A DNA stretch of 64,000 nt from Escherichia phage vB_EcoM_WFbE185. Of the stretch, positions 545 to 49,524 are shown piece after piece (position 1 is the stretch's first letter; every line of letters starts with the position of its first letter). Under the pieces are notes generated by a model. That model was not told the DNA's origin and did not search any database. It saw nothing but the letters and a program-made list of their open reading frames with translations. The translations under genes were made by a program, and so were the position numbers. The stretch lies in the sequence record MK373778.1. One strand, written 5' to 3'.

Positions 545-958
545 TTAGTAAATTGATTTACCATAGTATTTGTACCAAGTAGGACGTTGAGCAATTTTTT
601 CGTCTAAGCGTGCTTGACTTATCGCAATGGACGCTTCGGACGGGACGTAATTATTACGAAATTCGGCAGGGATGTCGGAAATATCCTGGACTGTTGTGTC
701 CTTGATTTTGAAACCACGTTTCAAACATTCGGCGATTAGCTCGATTTGACGTAAACGTAAAAATTCGAGTTTGTCGTAAAAGAATGTTACGTGACCTGTG
801 CCTAAGATAAATGTTGGAGAGATTTTAAAATCCTTTACACGTTTACCGTTTTGAACATGTTTACGGACTGCACCAAATACGCGTGGTAATTCACGATACT
901 CAGCCATAAGATGTTGGTCGGTCAGTTCAGAAACAAGTGTTAAATTGATACGAGTCAT
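545..958 (-). CDS. denV: endonuclease V, pyrimidine dimer DNA glycosylase
   Basis: [12 protein letters not shown]...[10 protein letters not shown] near-identical to T4 DenV as remembered; start moved to ATG at 958 (ORF track 970 is an upstream extension). Confidence 0.9.
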
Positions 959-985
959 AATTTCCTCCAAGTAGTTGATGAATGT

Positions 986-1015
986 ATAGTATCAAAGTCC
1001 TTGGAGGAAGTAAAC
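986..1015 (-). promoter_or_regulatory. early promoter (-35 GTTTAC, -10 TACTAT) for denV
   Basis: minus-strand GTTTACttcctccaaggactttgaTACTAT then leader with GGAGG before denV ATG. Confidence 0.5.
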
Positions 1016-2276: not shown

Positions 2277-2517
2277 CTCGGTCCCATGATTTGGCCATTA
2301 ATTCGGACATAAATTCTTCAATGCGCGTTTCTTTAGATGGACTTTCACTATTAGAGACCGCAAGTTTGTAATCTGCAATAGGACAGAACATATCAAGGTC
2401 CATATTAAGGTCGTCTTTGATTTTTTCTTCTGACACATCTTTATCGTATGTGTACAGATAACTATCACATGATTCTGATTTAATGTAAATTGCTATACTC
2501 ATCTCAAATTCCTGCAT
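2266..2517 (-). CDS. hypothetical protein
   Basis: ORF track 83 aa; overlaps upstream ORF end, consistent with translational coupling. Confidence 0.6.
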   Translation of the reverse strand: MQEFEMSIAIYIKSESCDSYLYTYDKDVSEEKIKDDLNMDLDMFCPIADYKLAVSNSESPSKETRIEEFMSELMAKSWDRDDE

Positions 2518-2990
2518 TCGGTAATAAAACGTTCAACTTCATTATTCTTGGCCTTTATCTTGTCTTTACGTTCCTGTAAACTACTTTTAACAAGATTAAT
2601 AATGATGCCTACAGTACCTCCACCAATAATACCACCAATAATACTTACGATAGTAGATGCTAATAAGATAGCAATAATATCAACAAAACCGAAAGAACTC
2701 ACCTTAGTACTAAAAAACCATACCGACGGTACAAATATAATCCATCCTGTTATCCATTGGCACTTATTGAAAAACTTTTCAAGCTCAGCTTGAGTTGTTC
2801 GTATTACTTCATCGATAGGTTGATATCCGTTAATGTATCTGTTCACGATAATACCTGCTGGCTGGTCGATTTTAAATTCTTGGCAAATACGTTTAACTAA
2901 GTAGGATGGACATCCTGTCCAATCTACTGAATAGTATGAAATACCTTCGTTGCCATCGTCTATATTAGACCAATATGTTTTGTTAATCAT
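2499..2990 (-). CDS. hypothetical membrane protein (two predicted TM helices), C-terminal FITECR
   Basis: ORF track 163 aa; hydrophobic stretches WIIFVPSVWFF and IIAILLASTIVSIIGGIIGGG. Confidence 0.65.
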   Translation of the reverse strand: MINKTYWSNIDDGNEGISYYSVDWTGCPSYLVKRICQEFKIDQPAGIIVNRYINGYQPIDEVIRTTQAELEKFFNKCQWITGWIIFVPSVWFFSTKVSSFGFVDIIAILLASTIVSIIGGIIGGGTVGIIINLVKSSLQERKDKIKAKNNEVERFITECRNLR

Positions 2991-3676
2991 TACCAGCCTT
3001 CCATAGGGAATTCCAGATAAACTTGAGCATTGACACGAATTTCATTGGTAATCTTTTTAACTCGGTCTGTATTACGAGATACACGTCCGAACCAACGCCA
3101 TCCGTTACTAATTGCACGAGAACCAGTGTGCCATGTTTGCCAATCAAACTGAAGAAGAGTACGATCTGGAGCTTCCCATTTCTCTAGTTCACCTTTTTCA
3201 ATTTTTTCGAGGACTTCTTTGTGCCACTGGCGATAGATAAGTTCGCCATCAGGAATCTGACTGAACTCTGCAGTTCCTGTTGCAAAATGAGTAGGACACA
3301 CGTCAGCGTTAACAAGACCAAGAATGTGTTCAGACAAATAGCGAGGATTGTCATAATCAGGTTGTCCTGCAGTAATAAAGTGTTGACCTACCGGAATATC
3401 CGGGCGTGGTACATCGTCATGGTGATAACCTGGGATAGCAGGGTACCAACCAGGCATCAGCATGTGGACTCGTGAATCAAATACAACCTGATCGGTGTTC
3501 CAATCATCTGGCAAGTTCATGATGAAGCTGCGAGTAATAGGACCGCCGTTATTATAAGCAAATTCTAAACTACAGTTGAAGAACATAGGCTCGTTTTTAA
3601 TCTGCTCGTTTTTAATCGCATGAGCAAAACCACCTACTGCACGAGCTTGACTATTAAACACTTTAGAACTATTCAT
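2990..3676 (-). CDS. hypothetical protein
   Basis: ORF track 228 aa; ATG preceded by GAGGA. Confidence 0.7.
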   Translation of the reverse strand: MNSSKVFNSQARAVGGFAHAIKNEQIKNEPMFFNCSLEFAYNNGGPITRSFIMNLPDDWNTDQVVFDSRVHMLMPGWYPAIPGYHHDDVPRPDIPVGQHFITAGQPDYDNPRYLSEHILGLVNADVCPTHFATGTAEFSQIPDGELIYRQWHKEVLEKIEKGELEKWEAPDRTLLQFDWQTWHTGSRAISNGWRWFGRVSRNTDRVKKITNEIRVNAQVYLEFPMEGW

Positions 3677-3677
3677 A

Positions 3678-3983
3678 TTATTTTCCTCGACATTCTTTAA
3701 TGAAATTTTCTAGATTGGTAGATTCAATAGCTTTTTTACGAGCTTCTGCGTGTTCTTCTTCAGACAATTTACGTTTATAATTGACCCAGACATTATGGTC
3801 TAAACCGGTCGTGGCATATAATATCAAAGCTCCGACGAATAATAAAAACGGTGATAAAAATATACAACCAGGAACACCATCCATACTGTAAGCCTTTTGT
3901 AATACTGCAACAGAAAGAGCTGCGTAAAAAAGTGATGCAAATATTGTAAAAAGACCAATTCGGTTGGTTTCGCCTAATTTCAT
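3678..3983 (-). CDS. hypothetical small membrane protein, C-terminal FIKECR
   Basis: ORF track 101 aa; two hydrophobic helices; own early promoter. Confidence 0.7.
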   Translation of the reverse strand: MKLGETNRIGLFTIFASLFYAALSVAVLQKAYSMDGVPGCIFLSPFLLFVGALILYATTGLDHNVWVNYKRKLSEEEHAEARKKAIESTNLENFIKECRGK

Positions 3984-4011
3984 AATATTCTCCTCATGTT
4001 TTAATAGGACT

Positions 4012-4041
4012 ACTATAACATAGCCCTATAATTGTGTAAAC
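4012..4041 (-). promoter_or_regulatory. early promoter cassette (-35 GTTTAC, -10 TATAGT inside ataggact/agtcctat palindrome)
   Basis: minus GTTTACacaattatagggctatgtTATAGT, leader with GAGGAG before ATG 3983. Confidence 0.55.
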
Positions 4042-4053
4042 AGTTTTGTGAAG

Positions 4054-5038: not shown

Positions 5039-5278
5039 TTAAATTTCACGACATGCGATATTATATTCATCCCAGAGGTCAACATGTGAAGCCTCTACCA
5101 ATGGAACGATTGTACCGTTTATGTCTTCATTATAAGGGCAAATTGTACAGTGCGCATCTTCGAATCGGATGCCTTTATGTTCAGATTTTTTATAACGCAT
5201 ATCGAATATCTTTGCAAACTTTTCACGACTAATAGTTTTAGCAACTACTTCAGTTCCGATACTTTCGTAATAAATCAT
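5039..5278 (-). CDS. hypothetical protein
   Basis: ORF track 5039..5290; second ATG (MIYYES) has GGAG SD, first does not. Confidence 0.6.
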   Translation of the reverse strand: MIYYESIGTEVVAKTISREKFAKIFDMRYKKSEHKGIRFEDAHCTICPYNEDINGTIVPLVEASHVDLWDEYNIACREI

Positions 5279-5306
5279 TGTGGACTCCATTTAATTTGAT
5301 AGGACT

Positions 5307-5336
5307 ACTATAACATAGCCCTATCTTGTTGTAAAC
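5307..5336 (-). promoter_or_regulatory. early promoter cassette (GTTTAC / TATAGT in palindrome)
   Basis: same gataggactactataacatagccctatc cassette as at 4000. Confidence 0.55.
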
Positions 5337-5340
5337 TGTT

Positions 5341-5538
5341 TTAGCAAGAATAACTAGATGATACCCAGCCTTGAACAGTAATACTATTGTGGGATAATGA
5401 GATCGCGTCCTGGAGATTCAGACCTGCGTTATCTTCAATCCATAATGTAACTTCTTCGCGTTCTTCTGTTGCAATCTGGAACAGGTTTTCCAGAGCAGCT
5501 ACTGCGGTACGCACAGCACAATCTAATTCACGAGACAT
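5341..5538 (-). CDS. hypothetical protein, paralog family member (C-terminal GWVSSSYSC)
   Basis: ORF track 65 aa. Confidence 0.6.
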   Translation of the reverse strand: MSRELDCAVRTAVAALENLFQIATEEREEVTLWIEDNAGLNLQDAISLSHNSITVQGWVSSSYSC

Positions 5539-8147: not shown

Positions 8148-8375
8148 TTATTTTTTAATCAAATTGACATAAAACTCTGCGTCTTCGGGGTGCATGCCTT
8201 CGCAGTATTCTTCAACCATGAACTTCTTAACGGCTTCATAAGGACCACTCAGATTAAGCTCAGTTGTCCAGAACTTGGAATCTTGTACTGAATCGATACG
8301 AACTTCAGGGTGACGGTTGCGAATAACTTCTTCTGTGTATTCATAATCAACGACATCAATACTAACTTTAGCCAT
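8148..8375 (-). CDS. hypothetical protein
   Basis: ORF track 75 aa; early promoter cassette and GAGGA upstream. Confidence 0.65.
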   Translation of the reverse strand: MAKVSIDVVDYEYTEEVIRNRHPEVRIDSVQDSKFWTTELNLSGPYEAVKKFMVEEYCEGMHPEDAEFYVNLIKK

Positions 8376-8403
8376 TTTGTTTTCCTCTTGATTTGATAGG
8401 ACT

Positions 8404-8433
8404 ACTATAACATAAACTTACTTAGATGTAAAT
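8404..8433 (-). promoter_or_regulatory. early promoter cassette (ATTTAC / TATAGT in palindrome)
   Basis: gataggactactataacat motif upstream of ORF 8148..8375. Confidence 0.45.
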
Positions 8434-8586
8434 TATTTCAACGTCACCTTTAGCTGCTTTATAACCTTCAGCCCAAGATACAACAGAGTTTTTATCTGAG
8501 GATTCAAATTCAGGCATTGGACTTTCACCAATATTCACACAGTATGTTTCTTCATTTTCATCGAACCAAATAATTAAAGTAGTCAT
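8422..8586 (-). CDS. hypothetical small protein (54 aa), not in ORF track
   Basis: hand translation MTTLIIWFDENEETYCVNIGESPMPEFESSDKNSVVSWAEGYKAAKGDVEIIYI; GAGGAG SD and early promoter upstream. Confidence 0.45.
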   Translation of the reverse strand: MTTLIIWFDENEETYCVNIGESPMPEFESSDKNSVVSWAEGYKAAKGDVEIIYI

Positions 8587-8616
8587 TTTGTTTACTCCTC
8601 TGTAGTTGATAAGTCT

Positions 8617-8646
8617 ATAGTATCACCATCCTTGGTGCTTGTACAT
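8617..8646 (-). promoter_or_regulatory. early promoter (-10 TACTAT, weak -35) with conserved leader agacttatcaactacagagga
   Basis: leader shared with the cassettes at 8989 and 45058. Confidence 0.4.
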
Positions 8647-8654
8647 CGTTATTT

Positions 8655-8960
8655 TTAATTTTTCCAACTTAACAACTTGTAGTGTCCTTCATTCGTACGA
8701 GGTTTATCCCAAGAAATACTAATATATGATTCGCTATCAATAGAAGTCGCCGGGTTTTTCTCTACCGTAAGACCTTCACTTTCCAGCCATTCAATAGTAT
8801 TTGCGCATAAATCTGAAGAACACCTCATCGGAAACCGGCAAGATTTTTCACCTTTAGCTGCAGTGTTATACATCTTTTCTAAAATACGCTTTTGCACGTT
8901 TTTAAAAATAGTTTCAGCAGATTCTTCAGATTTTTTATTCAGTTCAGTGTAAAGACTCAT
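8655..8960 (-). CDS. hypothetical protein
   Basis: ORF track 101 aa; early promoter upstream. Confidence 0.65.
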   Translation of the reverse strand: MSLYTELNKKSEESAETIFKNVQKRILEKMYNTAAKGEKSCRFPMRCSSDLCANTIEWLESEGLTVEKNPATSIDSESYISISWDKPRTNEGHYKLLSWKN

Positions 8961-8988
8961 AATATTTTCCTCTGTAGTTGATAAGTCT

Positions 8989-9017
8989 ATAATATCATGC
9001 CCTTAGAAGAAGTAAAC
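8989..9017 (-). promoter_or_regulatory. early promoter (-35 GTTTAC, 17 nt, -10 TATTAT)
   Basis: minus GTTTACttcttctaagggcatgaTATTAT then conserved leader. Confidence 0.5.
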
Positions 9018-9085: not shown

Positions 9086-9550
9086 TTATTTAATTTGTTT
9101 AGCAGACCAGATACGGTCTTTAATAAGTTTTTGGATATCTTCAACATACTCAAGGCTATGAGCGTGAGGATTATCTTTGAAGCTATGTGCTCGAGCGAGT
9201 TTCTGACCTTCAGTTTTGATTACCAAAAGTTCTTTAAGAATTGCTTCATACTTAGAAATAATTCCTTTGGCGATATTTTTTTCTTGAGCTGCTTTAGGGT
9301 CCGCTTTTGGTGATGGTGCTTTACCTGTAGCTTTCTGGAACAATTCACCTGATGCAGCTAGGCTTTTAAAAACTCGACTAACAGTATTAGCATTAGTAAA
9401 TCCTTCAGCTTTAAAATCTCTAATAAAACGGAAACGTTCTTCATCAGAGGCGTCTTTATAAGAATATTTACCTGCTTGAATTGCTGCAATTGCTGCGGCT
9501 TTTACATCTGAACTAGATTGTTCAGTCAAAAATTCTGCATATGATTTCAT
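9086..9550 (-). CDS. internal head protein-like, leader MKSYAEFLTE
   Basis: ORF track 154 aa; capsid targeting leader; flanked by near-identical hairpins. Confidence 0.7.
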   Translation of the reverse strand: MKSYAEFLTEQSSSDVKAAAIAAIQAGKYSYKDASDEERFRFIRDFKAEGFTNANTVSRVFKSLAASGELFQKATGKAPSPKADPKAAQEKNIAKGIISKYEAILKELLVIKTEGQKLARAHSFKDNPHAHSLEYVEDIQKLIKDRIWSAKQIK

Positions 9551-11695: not shown

Positions 11696-11902
11696 TTACT
11701 CACCTTTTGCAATTTTATCCATAACAATAGCGATTAAACCGATTAGAAATGCTACTACCAATGAGATAGAATTTTCAGTTGTTGTCAGTAGTCCGCAAAT
11801 GAATCCTACAAACATCGAAAAACTAAAAGCCATTGAAGCAATTACTACAGCAACATTACGAATCAGTTCAGCGCGTTTCATTTTATTTCTCCGTTTACTC
11901 AT
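11696..11902 (-). CDS. hypothetical small membrane protein
   Basis: ORF track 68 aa; hydrophobic stretches; real start may be second ATG at 11881. Confidence 0.55.
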   Translation of the reverse strand: MSKRRNKMKRAELIRNVAVVIASMAFSFSMFVGFICGLLTTTENSISLVVAFLIGLIAIVMDKIAKGE

Positions 11903-11918
11903 TTGTTTTGATAGGACT

Positions 11919-11948
11919 ACTATAACATAGTCCTATCATCATGTAAAC
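11919..11948 (-). promoter_or_regulatory. early promoter cassette (GTTTAC / TATAGT in palindrome)
   Basis: gataggactactataacatagtcctatc. Confidence 0.55.
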
Positions 11949-11950
11949 TA

Positions 11951-12214
11951 TTAAATTCCAGCTTCGCGTTTAACATAATCAACATAAGCTTCGATAGCTT
12001 TCTTGCTGGTAATTTTTACCTGGCCACGTCCATTGCCTTCTTTAGAGTTTTTCTTAACAACTACATTACCATCTTTAACACCCCATACATGGACATAAGT
12101 ACCGATGTTTCGGTCGTAGAACATTGCATGGTCGTTGTTGTAAGAGAATGATTCGTAGTTCTCCGACAGAGTAGAAGATTGAGATTCAGCGATAAATTCT
12201 TTATACGTTTTCAT
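11951..12214 (-). CDS. internal head protein-like, leader MKTYKEFIAE
   Basis: ORF track 87 aa. Confidence 0.7.
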   Translation of the reverse strand: MKTYKEFIAESQSSTLSENYESFSYNNDHAMFYDRNIGTYVHVWGVKDGNVVVKKNSKEGNGRGQVKITSKKAIEAYVDYVKREAGI

Positions 12215-12249
12215 TTGTTTTTCCGTTTGGTTGTTGATTTGATAGGACT

Positions 12250-12279
12250 ACTATAACATAGTCCTATCGGCATGTAAAC
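12250..12279 (-). promoter_or_regulatory. early promoter cassette (GTTTAC / TATAGT in palindrome)
   Basis: gataggactactataacatagtcctatc. Confidence 0.55.
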
Positions 12280-12282
12280 TAC

Positions 12283-12570
12283 TTACAGAAGAGTTTTTGC
12301 AATAATTTTAAGCTGAGCTACAGAAATATGCTTAGCTTTAAACAGTGCAGTCTCTTCGGCCGGAGAGATAACAATAGTAGCGCCGTCTTTCTTAGCAGAC
12401 CATCCGTCCCCTAAGTAAACAGTACCTTTTACTTCTTCACCGTCAACCAGACTAATCATTGGTTTACCCTCACGTCCTTTATTTGCTTTAATAACTTCGG
12501 AAGTAAGGGTTGCTTCGGTTAGAGTAGAAACGTTAGCATCAGGTGATATAAATTCTTTATAGGTTTTCAT
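12283..12570 (-). CDS. internal head protein-like, leader MKTYKEFIS...TLTE
   Basis: ORF track 95 aa. Confidence 0.65.
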   Translation of the reverse strand: MKTYKEFISPDANVSTLTEATLTSEVIKANKGREGKPMISLVDGEEVKGTVYLGDGWSAKKDGATIVISPAEETALFKAKHISVAQLKIIAKTLL

Positions 12571-12604
12571 TTTATTTCCTTGAGGTCGTTTATTTGATAG
12601 AATG

Positions 12605-12634
12605 ATAGTAACACACCATCATCCTTATGTAAAC
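12605..12634 (-). promoter_or_regulatory. early promoter (-35 GTTTAC, -10 TACTAT)
   Basis: minus GTTTACataaggatgatggtgtgtTACTAT. Confidence 0.5.
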
Positions 12635-12647
12635 TGTTTTGTGAAAA

Positions 12648-43136: not shown

Positions 43137-44705
43137 ATGACTACTATCAAAACTAAAGCTCAGCTCGTAGACAAATGGAAAGAACTGCTGGAAGGTGAAG
43201 GCCTGCCGGAAATCGCTAATAGCAAGCAGGCTATTATCGCTAAAATCTTCGAAAACCAGGAAAAAGATTTCGAAGTATCCCCTGAATATAAAGACGAGAA
43301 AATCGCTCAGGCATTTGGTTCTTTCTTGACCGAAGCTGAAATTGGTGGTGACCATGGTTATAATGCTCAGAACATCGCAGCAGGTCAAACCTCTGGTGCA
43401 GTAACCCAAATTGGGCCGGCAGTTATGGGTATGGTTCGTCGTGCTATTCCTAATCTGATCGCTTTTGATATTTGTGGTGTTCAGCCTATGAACAGCCCTA
43501 CCGGTCAGGTATTTGCTCTCCGTGCAGTATATGGTAAAGACCCTATCGCTGCTGGCGCTAAAGAAGCTTTCCATCCGATGTATGCCCCAGACGCGATGTT
43601 CTCTGGTCAGGGTGCTGCTAAGAAATTCCCAGCTCTGGCTGCTGACACTACTACTGTTGTAGGTGATATCTATACTCACTTCTTCCAAGAAACTGGTACT
43701 GTATATCTGCAAGCTTCTGCTGTCGTAACACTTGATTCTGGTGCAACTGATGCAGCTAAATTAGATGCAGAAGTTAAGAAACAAATGGAAGCTGGTGCAC
43801 TGGTAGAAATCGCTGAAGGTATGGCTACTTCTATCGCTGAACTTCAGGAAGGTTTCAACGGTTCTACCGATAACCCATGGAATGAAATGGGCTTCCGTAT
43901 CGATAAACAAGTTATCGAAGCTAAATCTCGCCAGCTGAAAGCTGCTTACTCTATCGAATTAGCACAAGACCTCCGTGCAGTACACGGTATGGATGCTGAT
44001 GCTGAACTGAGCGGTATTCTGGCTACAGAAATTATGCTAGAAATCAACCGTGAAGTTGTTGATTGGATTAACTACTCAGCACAGGTTGGTAAATCTGGTA
44101 TGACCCTGACTCCTGGTTCTAAAGCTGGTGTATTTGACTTCCAGGACCCGATTGATATCCGTGGTGCTCGTTGGGCCGGTGAAAGCTTTAAATCTCTGTT
44201 GTTCCAGATTGATAAAGAAGCAGTTGAAATTGCTCGTCAAACCGGACGTGGTGAAGGTAACTTCATTATCGCTTCCCGTAACGTAGTTAACGTACTGGCT
44301 TCAGTTGATACTGGTATTTCTTACGCTGCACAGGGTCTGGCTTCTGGTTTTAATACCGACACTACTAAGTCTGTATTTGCCGGTGTACTTGGTGGTAAAT
44401 ACCGCGTATACATCGACCAGTATGCTAAACAGGATTACTTCACCGTTGGTTACAAAGGTGCTAACGAAATGGATGCAGGTATTTACTATGCTCCTTACGT
44501 TGCACTTACCCCACTGCGTGGTTCCGATCCTAAGAACTTCCAGCCGGTAATGGGCTTTAAAACTCGTTACGGTATCGGTGTTAACCCGTTTGCTGAAAGT
44601 TCCCTGCAGGCTCCAGGTGCTCGCATCCAGTCCGGTATGCCGTCTATCCTGAACAGCCTTGGTAAGAACGCTTACTTCCGCCGTGTATATGTAAAAGGCA
44701 TCTAA
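43137..44705 (+). CDS. 23: major capsid protein
   Basis: 522 aa, over 95 percent identical to T4 gp23 as remembered. Confidence 0.98.
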   Translation: MTTIKTKAQLVDKWKELLEGEGLPEIANSKQAIIAKIFENQEKDFEVSPEYKDEKIAQAFGSFLTEAEIGGDHGYNAQNIAAGQTSGAVTQIGPAVMGMVRRAIPNLIAFDICGVQPMNSPTGQVFALRAVYGKDPIAAGAKEAFHPMYAPDAMFSGQGAAKKFPALAADTTTVVGDIYTHFFQETGTVYLQASAVVTLDSGATDAAKLDAEVKKQMEAGALVEIAEGMATSIAELQEGFNGSTDNPWNEMGFRIDKQVIEAKSRQLKAAYSIELAQDLRAVHGMDADAELSGILATEIMLEINREVVDWINYSAQVGKSGMTLTPGSKAGVFDFQDPIDIRGARWAGESFKSLLFQIDKEAVEIARQTGRGEGNFIIASRNVVNVLASVDTGISYAAQGLASGFNTDTTKSVFAGVLGGKYRVYIDQYAKQDYFTVGYKGANEMDAGIYYAPYVALTPLRGSDPKNFQPVMGFKTRYGIGVNPFAESSLQAPGARIQSGMPSILNSLGKNAYFRRVYVKGI

Positions 44706-44729
44706 TCTTAATTGATTAAATCTTATTTT

Positions 44730-44754
44730 GGGAGACTTCGGTCTCCCATTTTTG
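44730..44754 (+). terminator. intrinsic terminator after gene 23
   Basis: gggagacttcggtctccc then ATTTTTGGTTTT. Confidence 0.8.
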
Positions 44755-44757
44755 GTT

Positions 44758-45027
44758 TTATTTCTGTGCAATTTTGATGTAAGTTTTCAAAATATTTTGC
44801 CAATTAGGCATACCTTCTTGGACATATGCCGGAGAACCATCTTTGTTTTTGAATGATGCAAGTTTATCAGTGGCCCAATAACCTTTAGCTCGAGCTTCAG
44901 AATCAACTTTCATCCATACTTTGTTGAAGGCATTACCATTAACTTTTGCACCATATTTTTCTACTAACTTAACTGCTTCAGCTTCCAGAACTTTTAAAGT
45001 ATCTCGTAAGAAACGTGCTTTAGTCAT
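44758..45027 (-). CDS. hypothetical early protein antisense to the late cluster, at the position of T4 segD
   Basis: ORF track 89 aa; own early promoter and GGAG SD; no endonuclease motifs recognised. Confidence 0.65.
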   Translation of the reverse strand: MTKARFLRDTLKVLEAEAVKLVEKYGAKVNGNAFNKVWMKVDSEARAKGYWATDKLASFKNKDGSPAYVQEGMPNWQNILKTYIKIAQK

Positions 45028-45057
45028 TTTGTTTACTCCTCTGTAGTTGATAAGTCT

Positions 45058-45087
45058 ATAGTATCACATATCAAATACGTTGTAAAC
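45058..45087 (-). promoter_or_regulatory. early promoter (-35 GTTTAC, -10 TACTAT) with conserved leader
   Basis: GTTTACaacgtatttgatatgtgaTACTATagacttatcaactacagagga. Confidence 0.55.
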
Positions 45088-45093
45088 AATCTT

Positions 45094-45101
45094 TATAAAT
45101 A
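45094..45101 (+). promoter_or_regulatory. late promoter TATAAATA for gene 24
   Basis: exact octamer 28 nt upstream of ATG. Confidence 0.65.
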
Positions 45102-45128
45102 ATCTATATCACATAAGGAAAAAATGCA

Positions 45129-46412
45129 ATGAGTAAAATCCAAAAATTATTGCGTGAATCTACAACGTCTACTAGCAACTCAATTGGTCGCCCAAATCTC
45201 GTTGCTTTGACTCGCGCTACGACTAAATTAATATATTCTGACATTGTAGCAACACAAAGAACTAATCAACCTGTTGCTGCTTTTTATGGTATCAAATATC
45301 TTAACCCAGATAACGAATTCACATTTAAAACCGGTGCTACTTATGCTGGCGAAGTTGGATATGTAGACCGAGAAAAAATTACCGAGCTCACAGAAGAATC
45401 AAAAGTCACACTAAATAAAGGCGATTTTTTCAAATATAATAATATCGTTTATAAAGTATTAGAAGATACACCGTTTGCAGATATTCAGGAAAGTGATCTA
45501 GAATTAGCTCTTCAGATTGCGGTCGTTCATTTAAAGGTACGGTTGTTTTCAGATGCAGCGGTAACAAGCAAATTTGAAAGCTCTGGTAGCGAAATTTCTG
45601 ATGCAAGATTCCAGATTAATAAATGGCAAACCGCTGTTAAATCTCGTAAACTTAAAACTGGCCTAACGGTTGAATTAGCGCAAGATTTGGAAGCGAATGG
45701 ATTTGATGCCCCTAACTTCTTAGAAGATTTACTTGCTACTGAAATGGCTGATGAAATTAATAAAGATATTCTTCAGTCTTTAATTACTGTATCGAAACGT
45801 TATAAAGTTACTGGAATTACTGACACCGGATTTATTGACTTGAGCTATGCGTCTGCTCCAGAAGCAGGTCGTTCATTATATCGAATGGTGTGTGAAATGG
45901 TATCACACATTCAAAAAGAGTCAACTTATACCGCAACGTTTTGCGTAGCTTCAGCTCGTGCAGCCGCTATTCTTGCTGCTTCAGGTTGGTTAAAACATAA
46001 GCCGGAAGATGATAAGTATCTTTCACAAAATGCTTATGGATTCTTGGCAAATGGATTACCTCTTTACTGCGATACTAACAGCCCGTTAGATTATGTTATT
46101 GTGGGTGTTGTAGAAAATATCGGCGAAAAAGAAATTGTAGGGTCCATCTTTTATGCTCCATACACTGAAGGAGTAGATTTAGATGACCCGGAACATGTTG
46201 GTGCATTTAAAGTTGTAGTTGATCCAGAAAGCTTGCAACCGTCTATCGGATTATTGGTTAGATATGCTTTATCAGCAAATCCTTACACAGTAGCAAAAGA
46301 CGAAAAAGAAGCGAGAATAATTGATGGTGGGGACATGGATAAAATGGCAGGACGTTCAGACTTGTCTGTTTTACTCGGTGTTAAATTGCCTAAAATTATT
46401 ATAGATGAATAA
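45129..46412 (+). CDS. 24: capsid vertex protein
   Basis: 427 aa, synteny. Confidence 0.95.
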   Translation: MSKIQKLLRESTTSTSNSIGRPNLVALTRATTKLIYSDIVATQRTNQPVAAFYGIKYLNPDNEFTFKTGATYAGEVGYVDREKITELTEESKVTLNKGDFFKYNNIVYKVLEDTPFADIQESDLELALQIAVVHLKVRLFSDAAVTSKFESSGSEISDARFQINKWQTAVKSRKLKTGLTVELAQDLEANGFDAPNFLEDLLATEMADEINKDILQSLITVSKRYKVTGITDTGFIDLSYASAPEAGRSLYRMVCEMVSHIQKESTYTATFCVASARAAAILAASGWLKHKPEDDKYLSQNAYGFLANGLPLYCDTNSPLDYVIVGVVENIGEKEIVGSIFYAPYTEGVDLDDPEHVGAFKVVVDPESLQPSIGLLVRYALSANPYTVAKDEKEARIIDGGDMDKMAGRSDLSVLLGVKLPKIIIDE

Positions 46413-46443: not shown

Positions 46444-47442
46444 TTATGATACTAATTCAATCCATGCAGGACGCAGAACATCTTGCACCATTCGGACTAA
46501 TTCTTTCTTAACAAGATTCGGATTATCGGATGATGTTAATACAATACCTTCACGAGAAGTTTCTTCCAGAATATCTTGAACAGTCAATCCCATCACTTTG
46601 CCAAAATCTTTTGGCGTTACAGTCCCAATCTTAGAAATCACATTATTAACACGGTTTAATGTAACATAACAAGCTAGGACATCAAGCAAGTTTTTGTCAA
46701 TTTCGGTTAATGGAACCTGAGTTTTAATAGGCTTATCAGACTTTTTCTTTTCACTGAATTTAGAGTTCTTGCACTTAATAGCTACACGAGTACCGTTTGG
46801 CAGCCATTTAGGGAAACAAGGCTTCAGAACATAACCTTCTGCTGTATTATCGCCAATAACATTAGCATCAAATACACAATTATTTGCTTCTACAAGGTCT
46901 TCTGACGCAGTAGCATTATAAGCGGCTAAGACGGAATCAAGGTCATTTGGAATCGCGATAAGAGCATCGAATGTTCCACGACCGAGCATTGGTGCCATTT
47001 TAAAACCGAATTCATTACAGAAATCTTGCATTTCGTAATCGGTCAAATACGTATTATCACCACTTTCTGTATTGATAAGGATATCGAACACATAAAAATC
47101 TTTTTCACCGTAGTCAACACCTTTCTGGATTCCACCACCAGCGAATTCACCAAAGACCTGATATGATACAGCTCGAGAACTACCCATTACTTCTTGAACG
47201 TTTTTAATAGCCTTATCATACTTCTTGAGTACAATTTCATAACCATAAAAATCTTCTGCTGGAAGAATAGGGCCTGTGCGCTTGGCGCATGTGACGTTGT
47301 CACGTTCAATTATTAACGAGAAGTTAGTCCCATGGATTTTCTCACGTGCTACCCAAACACCAGTAGTCAAACCATTAGTGTAGAGTTTTTCAATAAACTT
47401 AGAGTTGTAGTGGTTTTCAAGACTGCTGTATTTCTTAAACAT
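46444..47442 (-). CDS. rnlB: RNA ligase 2
   Basis: [21 protein letters not shown]...EKIHGTNFS near-identical to T4 Rnl2 with ligase motif KxHGxN. Confidence 0.95.
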
Positions 47443-48105: not shown

Positions 48106-49524
48106 TTATGGATATGTATAGATGATACCAGTTTCCAAAGCAGTTTTATGGATGACGTATCCATTACGTGATTCTTGAACATCAACTTCTGGATAGTCTT
48201 TCATCATCTTCTGAAGAGTGTAACGATGCAGGTAGTATTTACTATCTGCATCTTCAGTTTTCCAATCTTTACCTTCTTCAGTCATTTTTTGTATTTCATC
48301 CATAACCCACCAACCGCACCAGATGTAAGCTGAAGTACGATGTGGAAGAGGATGAACATAAGGTAATTCACCTTCTGGTTCTGGAGCAACTTTATCGGTT
48401 ACCTGAACTTGTCCTTCTGCTGTAATAGTTTTGCTATCATAATCAGTAGCAGTAACGACGGCAGTCACTTCAATAGTTTGACTTCCAATAGATGAGGTAT
48501 CAACGGTATATACATTAGTTGACCCTTCTACAGGAGAAGAATCTTTCTTCCATGAATAAGCAATTTGTGCTTCTTCTGGTGCACCAGTAACATTAGCTGT
48601 AAATGTAGCCGAAGCATCTTGTTGAACATTAATAGAAGGAGGAGTCAATGTAACCTGTGGATTCATTGTCTTCTTATTAACCGTTAATGATACTTCATTC
48701 GAAGTAACTTCCTTTGCATCATAATCTGTCGCAGTTACTTGGGCTACACATTTAATTCTTTTTACTCCACTTGTAGTTGGAGTATAGCTAAATGTAGAGT
48801 TAGTTTCTCCACCAATCTGTGAATCATCTACATACCACTGATACGTAGCAGACGCTCCAACCGGTTGAGAAGCTAAGGCGGCAGTAAATTGAACTGGGGT
48901 TCCAATTACTCCGGCTGAAGGACTATTGGGAGTTACTGCCAACGTAGTTGTCTGCGTCTTTTTATTAACAGTCAGTGACACTTCATTAGAAGTAACGCTT
49001 AGTGCGTCATAATCTGTTGCGGTTACTTGAGCCACACACTTAATTCTTTTTACCCCGCTTTCGGCAGGAGTGTAATTGAATGTAGCGTTAGTTGCTTCGC
49101 CAACAGGAGAATCATCTACATACCATTGATAAGTAGCGTTTGCGCCTGATGGCTGCGAAGCTAAAGCGGCAGTAAATTCAATAGCTGTTCCGATTACTCC
49201 AGCGTCAGGGCTATTAGGAGTTACAGCTAAGGTAGTCGTTTGTGTCTTATTTTGAACTGTGATAGTTGTAGAAGCTTCTGCTGTTTCAGCTTCAGCTTCT
49301 GGAACTGTATTTGTTGCAACTACTTTAATAGACTTTTGACCTGCAGGTCCTTTTAACACATAATCAAAAGTTGCTTCAGCTCCATCTTGCGAAACATCAT
49401 CTACAGTCCAAGCATATGTAATAGTTCCACCTCCAGTTTCACCACTGGGAGTAGCAGTAAACTGCTGAGTCTGATCTATAACTCCAGTAGGTGTTTTAGG
49501 AGTTATATCAACTGTAAAAGCCAT
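48106..49524 (-). CDS. hoc: Hoc outer capsid decoration protein, four Ig-like domains
   Basis: 472 aa; Ig-like repeats plus C-terminal capsid-binding region; synteny hoc-inh. Confidence 0.9.
   Translation of the reverse strand: MAFTVDITPKTPTGVIDQTQQFTATPSGETGGGTITYAWTVDDVSQDGAEATFDYVLKGPAGQKSIKVVATNTVPEAEAETAEASTTITVQNKTQTTTLAVTPNSPDAGVIGTAIEFTAALASQPSGANATYQWYVDDSPVGEATNATFNYTPAESGVKRIKCVAQVTATDYDALSVTSNEVSLTVNKKTQTTTLAVTPNSPSAGVIGTPVQFTAALASQPVGASATYQWYVDDSQIGGETNSTFSYTPTTSGVKRIKCVAQVTATDYDAKEVTSNEVSLTVNKKTMNPQVTLTPPSINVQQDASATFTANVTGAPEEAQIAYSWKKDSSPVEGSTNVYTVDTSSIGSQTIEVTAVVTATDYDSKTITAEGQVQVTDKVAPEPEGELPYVHPLPHRTSAYIWCGWWVMDEIQKMTEEGKDWKTEDADSKYYLHRYTLQKMMKDYPEVDVQESRNGYVIHKTALETGIIYTYP
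48670..49245 (-). repeat. tandem in-frame duplication (2 x 288 bp) inside hoc
   Basis: two consecutive 96-aa units about 85 percent identical. Confidence 0.85.

Follow-up and report, generated by a model that had tools for sequence, protein, structure and literature searches.

PeSL (promoter-early stem-loop) cassettes of T4-type phages were described by Arbiol et al. 2010 (PMC2839356) and Comeau et al. 2014 (PMC4122927), and mini-circle crossovers between the -10 element and the SD or the ATG were found experimentally (PMC2839356). On the gene 23-24 interval, a review by Edgell et al. remarks that segD is oriented on the opposite strand, and Nolan et al. 2006 list in RB69 an early promoter on the minus strand (Pe:109605), a late promoter (Pl:109573), and a terminator given as '23-><-RB69ORF188c'. 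From that list and the segD remark, the anatomy of this slot is already known from RB69, while the literature appears to contain no specific discussion of the 89-aa gene that occupies it in the phage studied here. The promoter-leader idea is likewise not new, since PeSL modules are the subject of PMC2839356 and PMC4122927 and the RB69 early promoter was predicted in 2006.

We analyzed a stretch of 64,000 nucleotides from Escherichia phage vB_EcoM_WFbE185 (MK373778.1), hereafter the window, which is that of a Mosigvirus (RB69-like T4-type phage). The region is 99.4 to 99.7% identical to Mosigvirus relatives such as O157 typing phages 3 and 6 and PhAPEC2. The slot, its borders, and its contents are as follows.

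43137 to 44705, plus strand: gene 23 (major capsid protein), a 522-aa ORF annotated as gp23 in PhAPEC2 and RB69 (99% identity); left border of the slot.
44729 to 44758, plus strand: gene 23 intrinsic terminator, with the hairpin GGGAGACTTCGGTCTCCC at 44729-44748 followed by a T-run.
44758 to 45027, minus strand: 89-aa ORF with an ATG start; as allele A it belongs to the RB69ORF188c/189c-JS98 orf173 family (phrog_6003) and is a putative early accessory gene.
45028 to 45051, minus strand: predicted 5' UTR of ~24 nt, with the SD GAGGAG at 45041-45036, 8 nt before the ATG.
45058 to 45087, minus strand: T4-type early (sigma-70) promoter, from a promoter scan; its RB69 homolog is Pe:109605.
45094 to 45101, plus strand: gene 24 late promoter TATAAATA, from the sequence; its RB69 counterpart is Pl:109573.
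45129 to 46412, plus strand: gene 24 (capsid vertex protein); right border of the slot.
46444 to 47442, minus strand: rnlB, beyond gene 24.

A preliminary description of this DNA had reported an 89-aa minus-strand ORF flanked by the terminator of gene 23 and the late promoter of gene 24, and the sequence confirmed this arrangement. The same description called the gene antisense, which is correct as to the strand but not as to any overlap, because the ORF reaches neither gene 23 (stop 44705) nor gene 24 (start 45129). We also found segD at the corresponding position in T4, as had been stated. Like the window gene, segD lies on the opposite strand and adjoins the gene 24 late promoter, but the two genes are unrelated: the window gene encodes 89 aa, against about 200-230 aa for Seg-type proteins, and has no GIY-YIG domain. 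No T4 record was present among the tblastn matches of the 89-aa ORF. The relatives that share family, slot, and orientation with the window gene are RB69ORF188c/189c, PhAPEC2_170, and JS98 orf173, all annotated as hypothetical proteins (PhAPEC2_170 as 'similar to RB69ORF188c'); frameshifts break up the copy in the RB69 reference but not the one in the window, which is intact.

The minus-strand promoter reads G-TTTACA, with the -35 element TTTACA at 45086-45081, a 17-nt spacer, and an extended -10 element (TGnTACTAT, with TACTAT at 45063-45058), and it is preceded by the A/T-rich region TTATTTATAAAGATT. In its -35 and -10 elements, spacer, upstream region, and orientation before the ORF, it thus agrees with T4-type early promoters, and its RB69 homolog was independently predicted with a score of 29.9 by the early-promoter HMM of Nolan et al. 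From the position of the -10 element, transcription would start near 45051, and the promoter class predicts early timing for the 89-aa gene. The early -35 element and the late promoter stand back to back, 6 nt apart, and this arrangement is conserved in T4, in JS98, and in two metagenomic T4-type contigs, L020 and L022. Occupied slots share the motif TATTTATAAA..(G/A)TTTACA, of which T4 has a variant.

The terminator hairpin at the other end of the slot folds with -18.2 kcal/mol (z -6.7). The 18-nt hairpin is identical in all slot versions of Mosigvirus, Dhakavirus, L020, and L022, T4 again having a variant, and it also forms the 3' boundary of the leftward 89-aa ORF. A scan of the minus strand detected no intrinsic terminator after the ORF: the stem is followed on that strand by AAAAUAAG (given also as AAAATAAG), and the T-run is found only on the plus strand, so that the U-run on both strands that characterizes a bidirectional terminator is missing. 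As the minus strand has no U-tract, some read-through antisense to gene 23 is possible.

We then evaluated the ORF as a gene. In a profile search, the 89-aa protein matched phrog_6003 (E 2.9e-45) and no endonuclease family; the phrog_6003 alignment is full-length, with residues 1-89 covering positions 1-90 of the 90 in the profile. By tblastn, full-length homologs were present in 215 phage records, which split into ~119 at an identity of at least 90% and 95 below 60%. The first group consists of Mosigvirus records in which the ORF is intact. Amino acid identity was 96.6-100% to the listed Mosigvirus copies and 33-36% to the Dhakavirus copies. Among JS98-type (allele B) copies, dN/dS was 0.05-0.13 at dS 0.3-0.5 (Nei-Gojobori). 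Allele A of the window compared with the 61%-identical L020 copy gave a pN of 0.23 and a pS of 0.71, and synonymous sites were saturated against both L020 and L022. Together, the full-length homologs, the low dN/dS, and the confident fold described below show that the 89-aa ORF is a real gene under purifying selection. The preliminary description had considered that its reading would suffer from a lack of coding conservation in relatives or from a match to a known endonuclease; coding is conserved, and the protein matches no known endonuclease.

The gene is nonetheless dispensable, at least in the laboratory, since it is split in the RB69 reference, exists in truncated copies, and is missing from Tequatrovirus. 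In RB69, two frameshifts separate ORF188c from ORF189c, and the slot leader carries 3 substitutions; the truncated versions, such as that of phage mogra, are 51 aa long; and no member of the family was found in Tequatrovirus, either among the tblastn matches or by inspection of the RB33 and Shfl2 slots. Outside the slot, we found two distant homologs in unrelated contexts (ABPH49 and L023), and slot homologs also occur in the loci L013-L018. A word-indexed protein search returned 8 proteins, an exhaustive HMMER profile search of 1.84 billion representatives returned 8 clusters, and a scan of IMG/VR with the family alignment gave only six Dhakavirus-like loci. A 655-aa HMMER match with a repeated 22-residue stretch resembling the beta-hairpin was judged spurious, being a cytochrome-b5-like repeat.

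The predicted protein (~10 kDa, pI 9.8) is basic and hydrophilic and contains no cysteine. AlphaFold (AF2) modeled it with a pLDDT of 87 as three helices (residues 3-25, 31-48, and 76-88) and a beta-hairpin (56-70). The only match in BFVD, a 32%-identical homolog of the same family, folds alike (TM 0.77). In Pfam, the sole hit was a sub-threshold one to DUF4859 (17.9 bits against a cut-off of 22.6), NCBIfam gave no match, and neither collection revealed a GIY-YIG or HNH domain. PADLOC defence and anti-defence models matched 0 families, PDB sequence searches with the single sequence and with the profile returned nothing below E 0.07, and Foldseek of the model against the PDB returned no match at E <= 0.001. 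At the nucleotide level, Rfam gave no match above chance over 44500-45300. Our guess is that the protein might bind a host or phage macromolecule as an accessory factor of host takeover or anti-defence.

The 23-24 slot had been proposed to be a hotspot, and the synteny comparison across relatives agrees: judged by gene content, it is a hotspot with five states.

State 1, empty: RB33 and Shfl2 (Tequatroviruses), with an 83-bp spacer containing only the late promoter and the terminator.
State 2, segD: T4.
State 3, allele A: the window, PhAPEC2, WFL6982, and others (~119 records).
State 4, allele B (33-36% identity to A): JS98 and about 55 more records of Dhakavirus type.
State 5, allele B with a SegD-like endonuclease gene: Mosigvirus LF82-3 and 37 other records, including Dhakavirus IME08.

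The state 5 endonuclease is a 219-aa GIY-YIG protein, 57.5% identical to T4 SegD, whose gene begins 4 nt after allele B. In addition, A-like genes with 70% and 61% identity occupy the same slot in L022 and L020, respectively, and one of these two contigs has a duplicated gene 24, as in JS98. The leaders between the -10 element and the ATG are of different types: TACTATAGACTTATCAACTACAGAGGAG... in Mosigvirus, TACTATAGACCTATCAAAACATGAGGAG... in Dhakavirus, and unrelated sequences in L022 and L020. By its distribution, the gene family has long been resident in the slot and is not a recent arrival. The proposal that the gene had been delivered together with its leader did not survive this comparison, as the deeply diverged slot relatives have different leaders. 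Since slot relatives carry different leaders and the same leader type serves unrelated genes, the comparison indicates that ORF and leader have separate histories and that the leader is a crossover point, not a vehicle travelling with the gene.

The promoter-leader itself recurs in the window. The preliminary description had reported near-identical copies at two other loci, and both were recovered, one as 47 identical nucleotides and the other as a 30-nt core.

45021 to 45067, minus strand: slot copy of the promoter-leader module, 47 nt identical to 8580-8626.
8580 to 8626, minus strand: copy 2, driving a 54-aa ORF at 8422 to 8586 (RB69ORF145c homolog).
8952 to 8998, minus strand: copy 3, a 30-nt core with 1 mismatch, driving a 101-aa ORF at 8655 to 8960 (RB69ORF146c homolog).
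949 to 1014, minus strand: a distant fourth member, the denV promoter-leader, in which a 10-bp stem pairs the promoter spacer with the SD.

The 27-mer given in the preliminary description occurs without mismatch at 45037-45063 and 8596-8622 and with one mismatch at 8968-8994, and had 0 matches in 100 shuffles. The identity between the slot copy and the copy near 8600 extends from the extended -10 element through ATGACTA; upstream of the -10 element, the copies share only promoter consensus positions. The fourth copy is weak (62% at 949-995). Copies 2 and 3 are located in the e-tRNA hyperplastic region, and the RB69 leader before RB69ORF145c is identical to copy 2. A 55-nt leader query found 1159 places in 490 records, among them T4 denV and Dhakavirus alc, with three to five places per genome in Mosigvirus and five to eight in Dhakavirus. 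These places serve unrelated genes, which upholds the earlier suggestion of a reused module. The T4 denV leader (TACTATAGACCTATCAACTACAGGAG) and that of Dhakavirus alc follow the pattern TACTATAGAC(C/T)TATCAACTACAG(A)GGAG, with nearly the same -10 element, initial transcribed sequence, and SD as the slot module, but the denV module has the 10-bp spacer-SD stem that the slot module lacks.

The sequence ATCAA stands at the same distance after the -10 element in 11 of the 13 TTTAC-type early promoters of the window, most of which have GGAG or GAGG SDs. Because of this, the likeness of the leaders is partly a class consensus (YATCAA, GGAG), and their identity could be kept by selection without recent recombination. 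Folding of the slot copy yielded a 5-bp TGATA/TATCA stem and an 8-bp pairing with the -35 region (TTGTTTAC/GTAAACAA; z -2.4). Copies 2 and 3 had a z of -0.4, with a 5-bp CACCA/TGGTG hairpin in the spacer of copy 2, and in a second promoter family of the window the -10 element is surrounded by perfect 10-bp stems. Since GTAAACAA pairs with the -35 region of the slot (TTGTTTAC) and not with that of the copy near 8600, the pairing weakly hints that the leader may be native to the slot.

Junctions between haplotypes were observed at both ends of the slot. Through gene 23 until its last ~70 nt, and again from the SD rightward, LF82-3 and the window are 99-100% identical, and the segment in between contains, in LF82-3, allele B and the endonuclease gene. 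Its leader is of Mosigvirus type up to GAGGAG and of Dhakavirus type from ATTAAAAATGAAC on; at the other end, the sequence is of Dhakavirus type up to the hairpin and follows a Mosigvirus haplotype past it. WFL6982 has the same alternative haplotype of the gene 23 end as LF82-3, switching at the hairpin, and as it combines this haplotype with allele A, another crossover must have occurred at the hairpin. Comparable junctions were found at the other module copies. The 54-aa ORF is absent from NHEP36 and Mizar: in NHEP36, its promoter-leader, identical to that of the window until GAGGAG, is fused to the start of frd.3 with the junction inside AGAGGAG/AAACAAAATG, and Mizar has the same fusion with a variant leader. 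The 101-aa ORF has kept its leader while its upstream neighbours differ among the window, NHEP36, and Mizar; in RB69, the promoter-leader of the 101-aa gene is another one entirely, and its upstream neighbour differs as well. Altogether, these comparative junctions show that cassettes are exchanged and deleted by crossovers located at the leader modules and at the terminator hairpin. For LF82-3 in particular, the exchange could be a co-conversion tract resulting from endonuclease cleavage, whose ends lie in conserved elements only because homology resumes there.

The slot module resembles PeSLs in several respects. It combines an A/T-rich region, sigma-70-like -35 and -10 elements, an SD, and the start codon of a small early ORF; near-identical copies precede small early ORFs, three of them in the window; and junctions fall in the -10-to-ATG element (GAGGAG in LF82-3, AGAGGAG/AAACAAAATG in NHEP36 and Mizar), with indels and ORF replacements. 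It differs in that the stem pairing within the slot copy is weak (z -2.4), falling short of the clear stem-loop that PeSLs have between the -35 and -10 elements, over the -10 element, or just upstream, and in that the slot lies inside the conserved head-gene block, whereas PeSLs are found in hyperplastic regions. Moreover, the PeSL descriptions concern RB49/phi1, PST/T4, and nt-1/KVP40 and do not cover RB69-like phages.

The interpretation that we favor, with a probability of roughly 0.6, is that the 89-aa ORF is a non-essential early accessory gene that has long resided in the 23-24 slot, with a PeSL-like leader module and cassette exchange. Soon after infection begins, the early promoter at 45087-45058 would be used by host RNA polymerase. 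The resulting mRNA would run leftward from a ~24-nt leader in which GAGGAG is a strong ribosome-binding site, and its product would be a basic, soluble protein of 10 kDa with three helices and a beta-hairpin. By analogy with T4, the GGAG in the SD would probably also be a RegB cleavage site. The transcript would converge on gene 23 and meet the hairpin, where 3'-end stabilisation or polymerase pausing seems likelier than efficient termination because the minus strand has no U-tract. The exact identity of 40-47 nt with the leader of the RB69ORF145c homolog would most likely result from ectopic homologous recombination or gene conversion between dispersed modules, and slot contents and neighbouring small ORFs are exchanged or deleted at the modules and the hairpin. 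We infer gene conversion between leader copies from that identity.

In line with the preliminary description, one could suppose instead that the gene is a recent arrival, inserted as one unit with a portable promoter-leader cassette. This would account for a leader identical at 47 of 47 positions to another locus of the same genome and for a slot that contains no gene in some T-even phages and segD in T4, and the PeSL mini-circle model permits the insertion of an ORF with one chimeric module. Yet the slots of Mosigvirus, Dhakavirus, and two metagenomic lineages all contain a member of this family, with 33-70% aa identity and saturated synonymous sites, and ORF and leader are unlinked, as the A-type ORFs of L020 and L022 have unrelated leaders and the B-type ORF of LF82-3 has a Mosigvirus leader; we therefore regard recent joint insertion as improbable. 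Somewhat better placed, if still unlikely, is the view that functional selection rather than recombination keeps the leaders identical, acting on the initial transcribed sequence and ribosome-binding site or on a GGAG target of RegB. RegB cuts GGAG in early SDs and thereby inactivates T4 early mRNAs. The recurrence of ATCAA in 11 of the 13 early promoters of the window, mostly with GGAG/GAGG SDs, the conservation of the motif from T4 denV to Dhakavirus alc, and the 3 substitutions in the RB69 slot leader, which fit relaxed constraint where the ORF is broken, all speak for such selection. Other early genes of the window, however, work with quite different leaders, so 40 identical bases are not required, and real crossovers inside leaders are seen at the comparative junctions.

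Two further explanations would deny the protein its role. Antisense ('anti-late') RNA is a classical T4 observation, and with no intrinsic terminator after the ORF on the minus strand, read-through into antisense gene 23 is plausible, so that an anti-late RNA across gene 23 could be the main product and the ORF incidental. We consider this very unlikely, given the strong purifying selection on the protein sequence, the strong and optimally spaced SD, the lack of an Rfam match, and the empty-slot phages, which have no slot promoter and yet express gene 23 normally. The broken state of the ORF in RB69 and its truncation in phage mogra might suggest that the frame is open by chance or is what remains of a decaying gene, such as one for a homing endonuclease, but this is in effect refuted by conservation: the ORF is intact in ~119 Mosigvirus records, its dN/dS is well below 1, its fold is confident, and it has no similarity to GIY-YIG or HNH proteins. 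An origin as a segD remnant was specifically rejected for want of any similarity. A more speculative extension, to which we give only a small chance, is a dimorphic early locus that crosses genera: alleles A and B, each under purifying selection, would be swapped between the SD and the hairpin, B having spread by means of the linked, co-transcribed SegD-like endonuclease, and the dimorphism would be kept by a host-range or anti-defence role or by an endonuclease target in A to which B is immune.

What is added here is the A/B allele dimorphism and a precisely bounded cassette swap linked to a SegD-like endonuclease, and its value is modest. The PeSL picture, in which early leaders and terminator hairpins are the joints of cassette exchange, is thereby extended to RB69-like phages, with the exchange operating within the conserved head-gene block, beside a homing-endonuclease slot. 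The replacement of A by B plus the SegD-like endonuclease is a clean natural swap, both ends of which lie in regulatory elements only a few nucleotides long. Like many other early proteins of T-even phages, the 89-aa protein is conserved and dispensable, and because it comes in two alleles it would be a reasonable choice for a host-interaction screen.

In the Mosigvirus genomes, the last ~70 nt of gene 23 and the spacer to the terminator hairpin occur as two haplotypes (window 44640-44728 versus L004, the LF82-3 locus, and L009), which are ~73% identical across a 100-nt stretch and assort independently of the ORF allele in the slot. A further observation concerns the reference copy of the slot gene in RB69.

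L005 (RB69) 2388-2628: slot gene with a +1 and a -1 frameshift

Besides the frameshifts, this copy has substitutions clustered near codons 15-25, and its leader carries three more. These changes reflect either real decay in the laboratory strain or errors of early sequencing.

Two observations bear on how the endonuclease genes of the slot might be expressed.

L019 (T4T) 640-705: candidate early promoter 5' of T4 segD, TTTACA-17 nt-TATTAT, followed by GGAG and ATG
L004 (LF82-3) 2364-3293, also L014 and L017: allele B plus the SegD-like endonuclease gene

According to a 2010 review (PMC2988022), a segD-specific promoter could not be found. With respect to the gene 24 late promoter, the candidate is placed just where the early promoter lies in Mosigvirus, and it may have been overlooked earlier since A replaces the usual G before TTTAC. 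At LF82-3, L014 and L017, the start of the endonuclease gene lies 4 nt past the allele B stop (TAAAATATG), and the gene has no Shine-Dalgarno (SD) sequence of its own. It would share a transcript with allele B, from the early promoter, and would probably be translated by coupling. For T4, the dedicated promoters reported for free-standing homing-endonuclease genes are of the middle or late class rather than the early one.

Leaders also mark natural deletions. The RB69ORF145c homolog is naturally deleted in NHEP36 (L024 560-640) and Mizar (L026 560-640), and the deletion junction lies within the SD-ATG part of two adjacent leaders that belong to different families. As little as ~15 nt of leader in common is sufficient for such deletions.

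The denV promoter-leader contains an inverted repeat.

Window 956-1014, minus strand: denV promoter-leader inverted repeat, perfect over 10 bp
L010 380-500: T4 denV counterpart, for comparison

In the window, the promoter spacer TTCCTCCAAG pairs with the SD region CTTGGAGGAA. The T4 arms (TCTCCTGTAG and CTACAGGAGA) differ in sequence yet are equally complementary, and thus the stem is kept despite changes in both arms. On read-through transcripts, the stem would hide the SD; transcripts started at the embedded promoter would lack its 5' arm.

A second early promoter-leader repeat family in the window is larger than the slot-leader family.

3981-4047, 5276-5342, 8373-8439, 11888-11954, 12219-12285 and 12589-12640, motif read on the minus strand: six copies of the second family

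The motif is GTTTACA..GATAGGACTATGTTATAGTAGTCCTATCAA. In the best copies, a perfect 10-bp stem (GATAGGACTA/TAGTCCTATC) encloses the -10 box, a textbook PeSL-type stem-loop.

Downstream of rnlB (window 48668-49243), a 288-nt unit is tandemly duplicated, the two copies being 76% identical; the units may be repeated domains within one coding sequence.

Finally, six small genes of the window have a conserved 5' coding end in common, encoding MK(T/M/S)Y(Q/S/A)EF(I/L).E.

185-214, 509-538, 1269-1298, 9521-9550, 12185-12214 and 12541-12570, minus strand: shared 5' coding ends

We take this end to resemble the sequence that targets internal proteins of T4 to the capsid, and the resemblance suggests that internal-protein-like genes form a large set, dispersed among the promoter modules.
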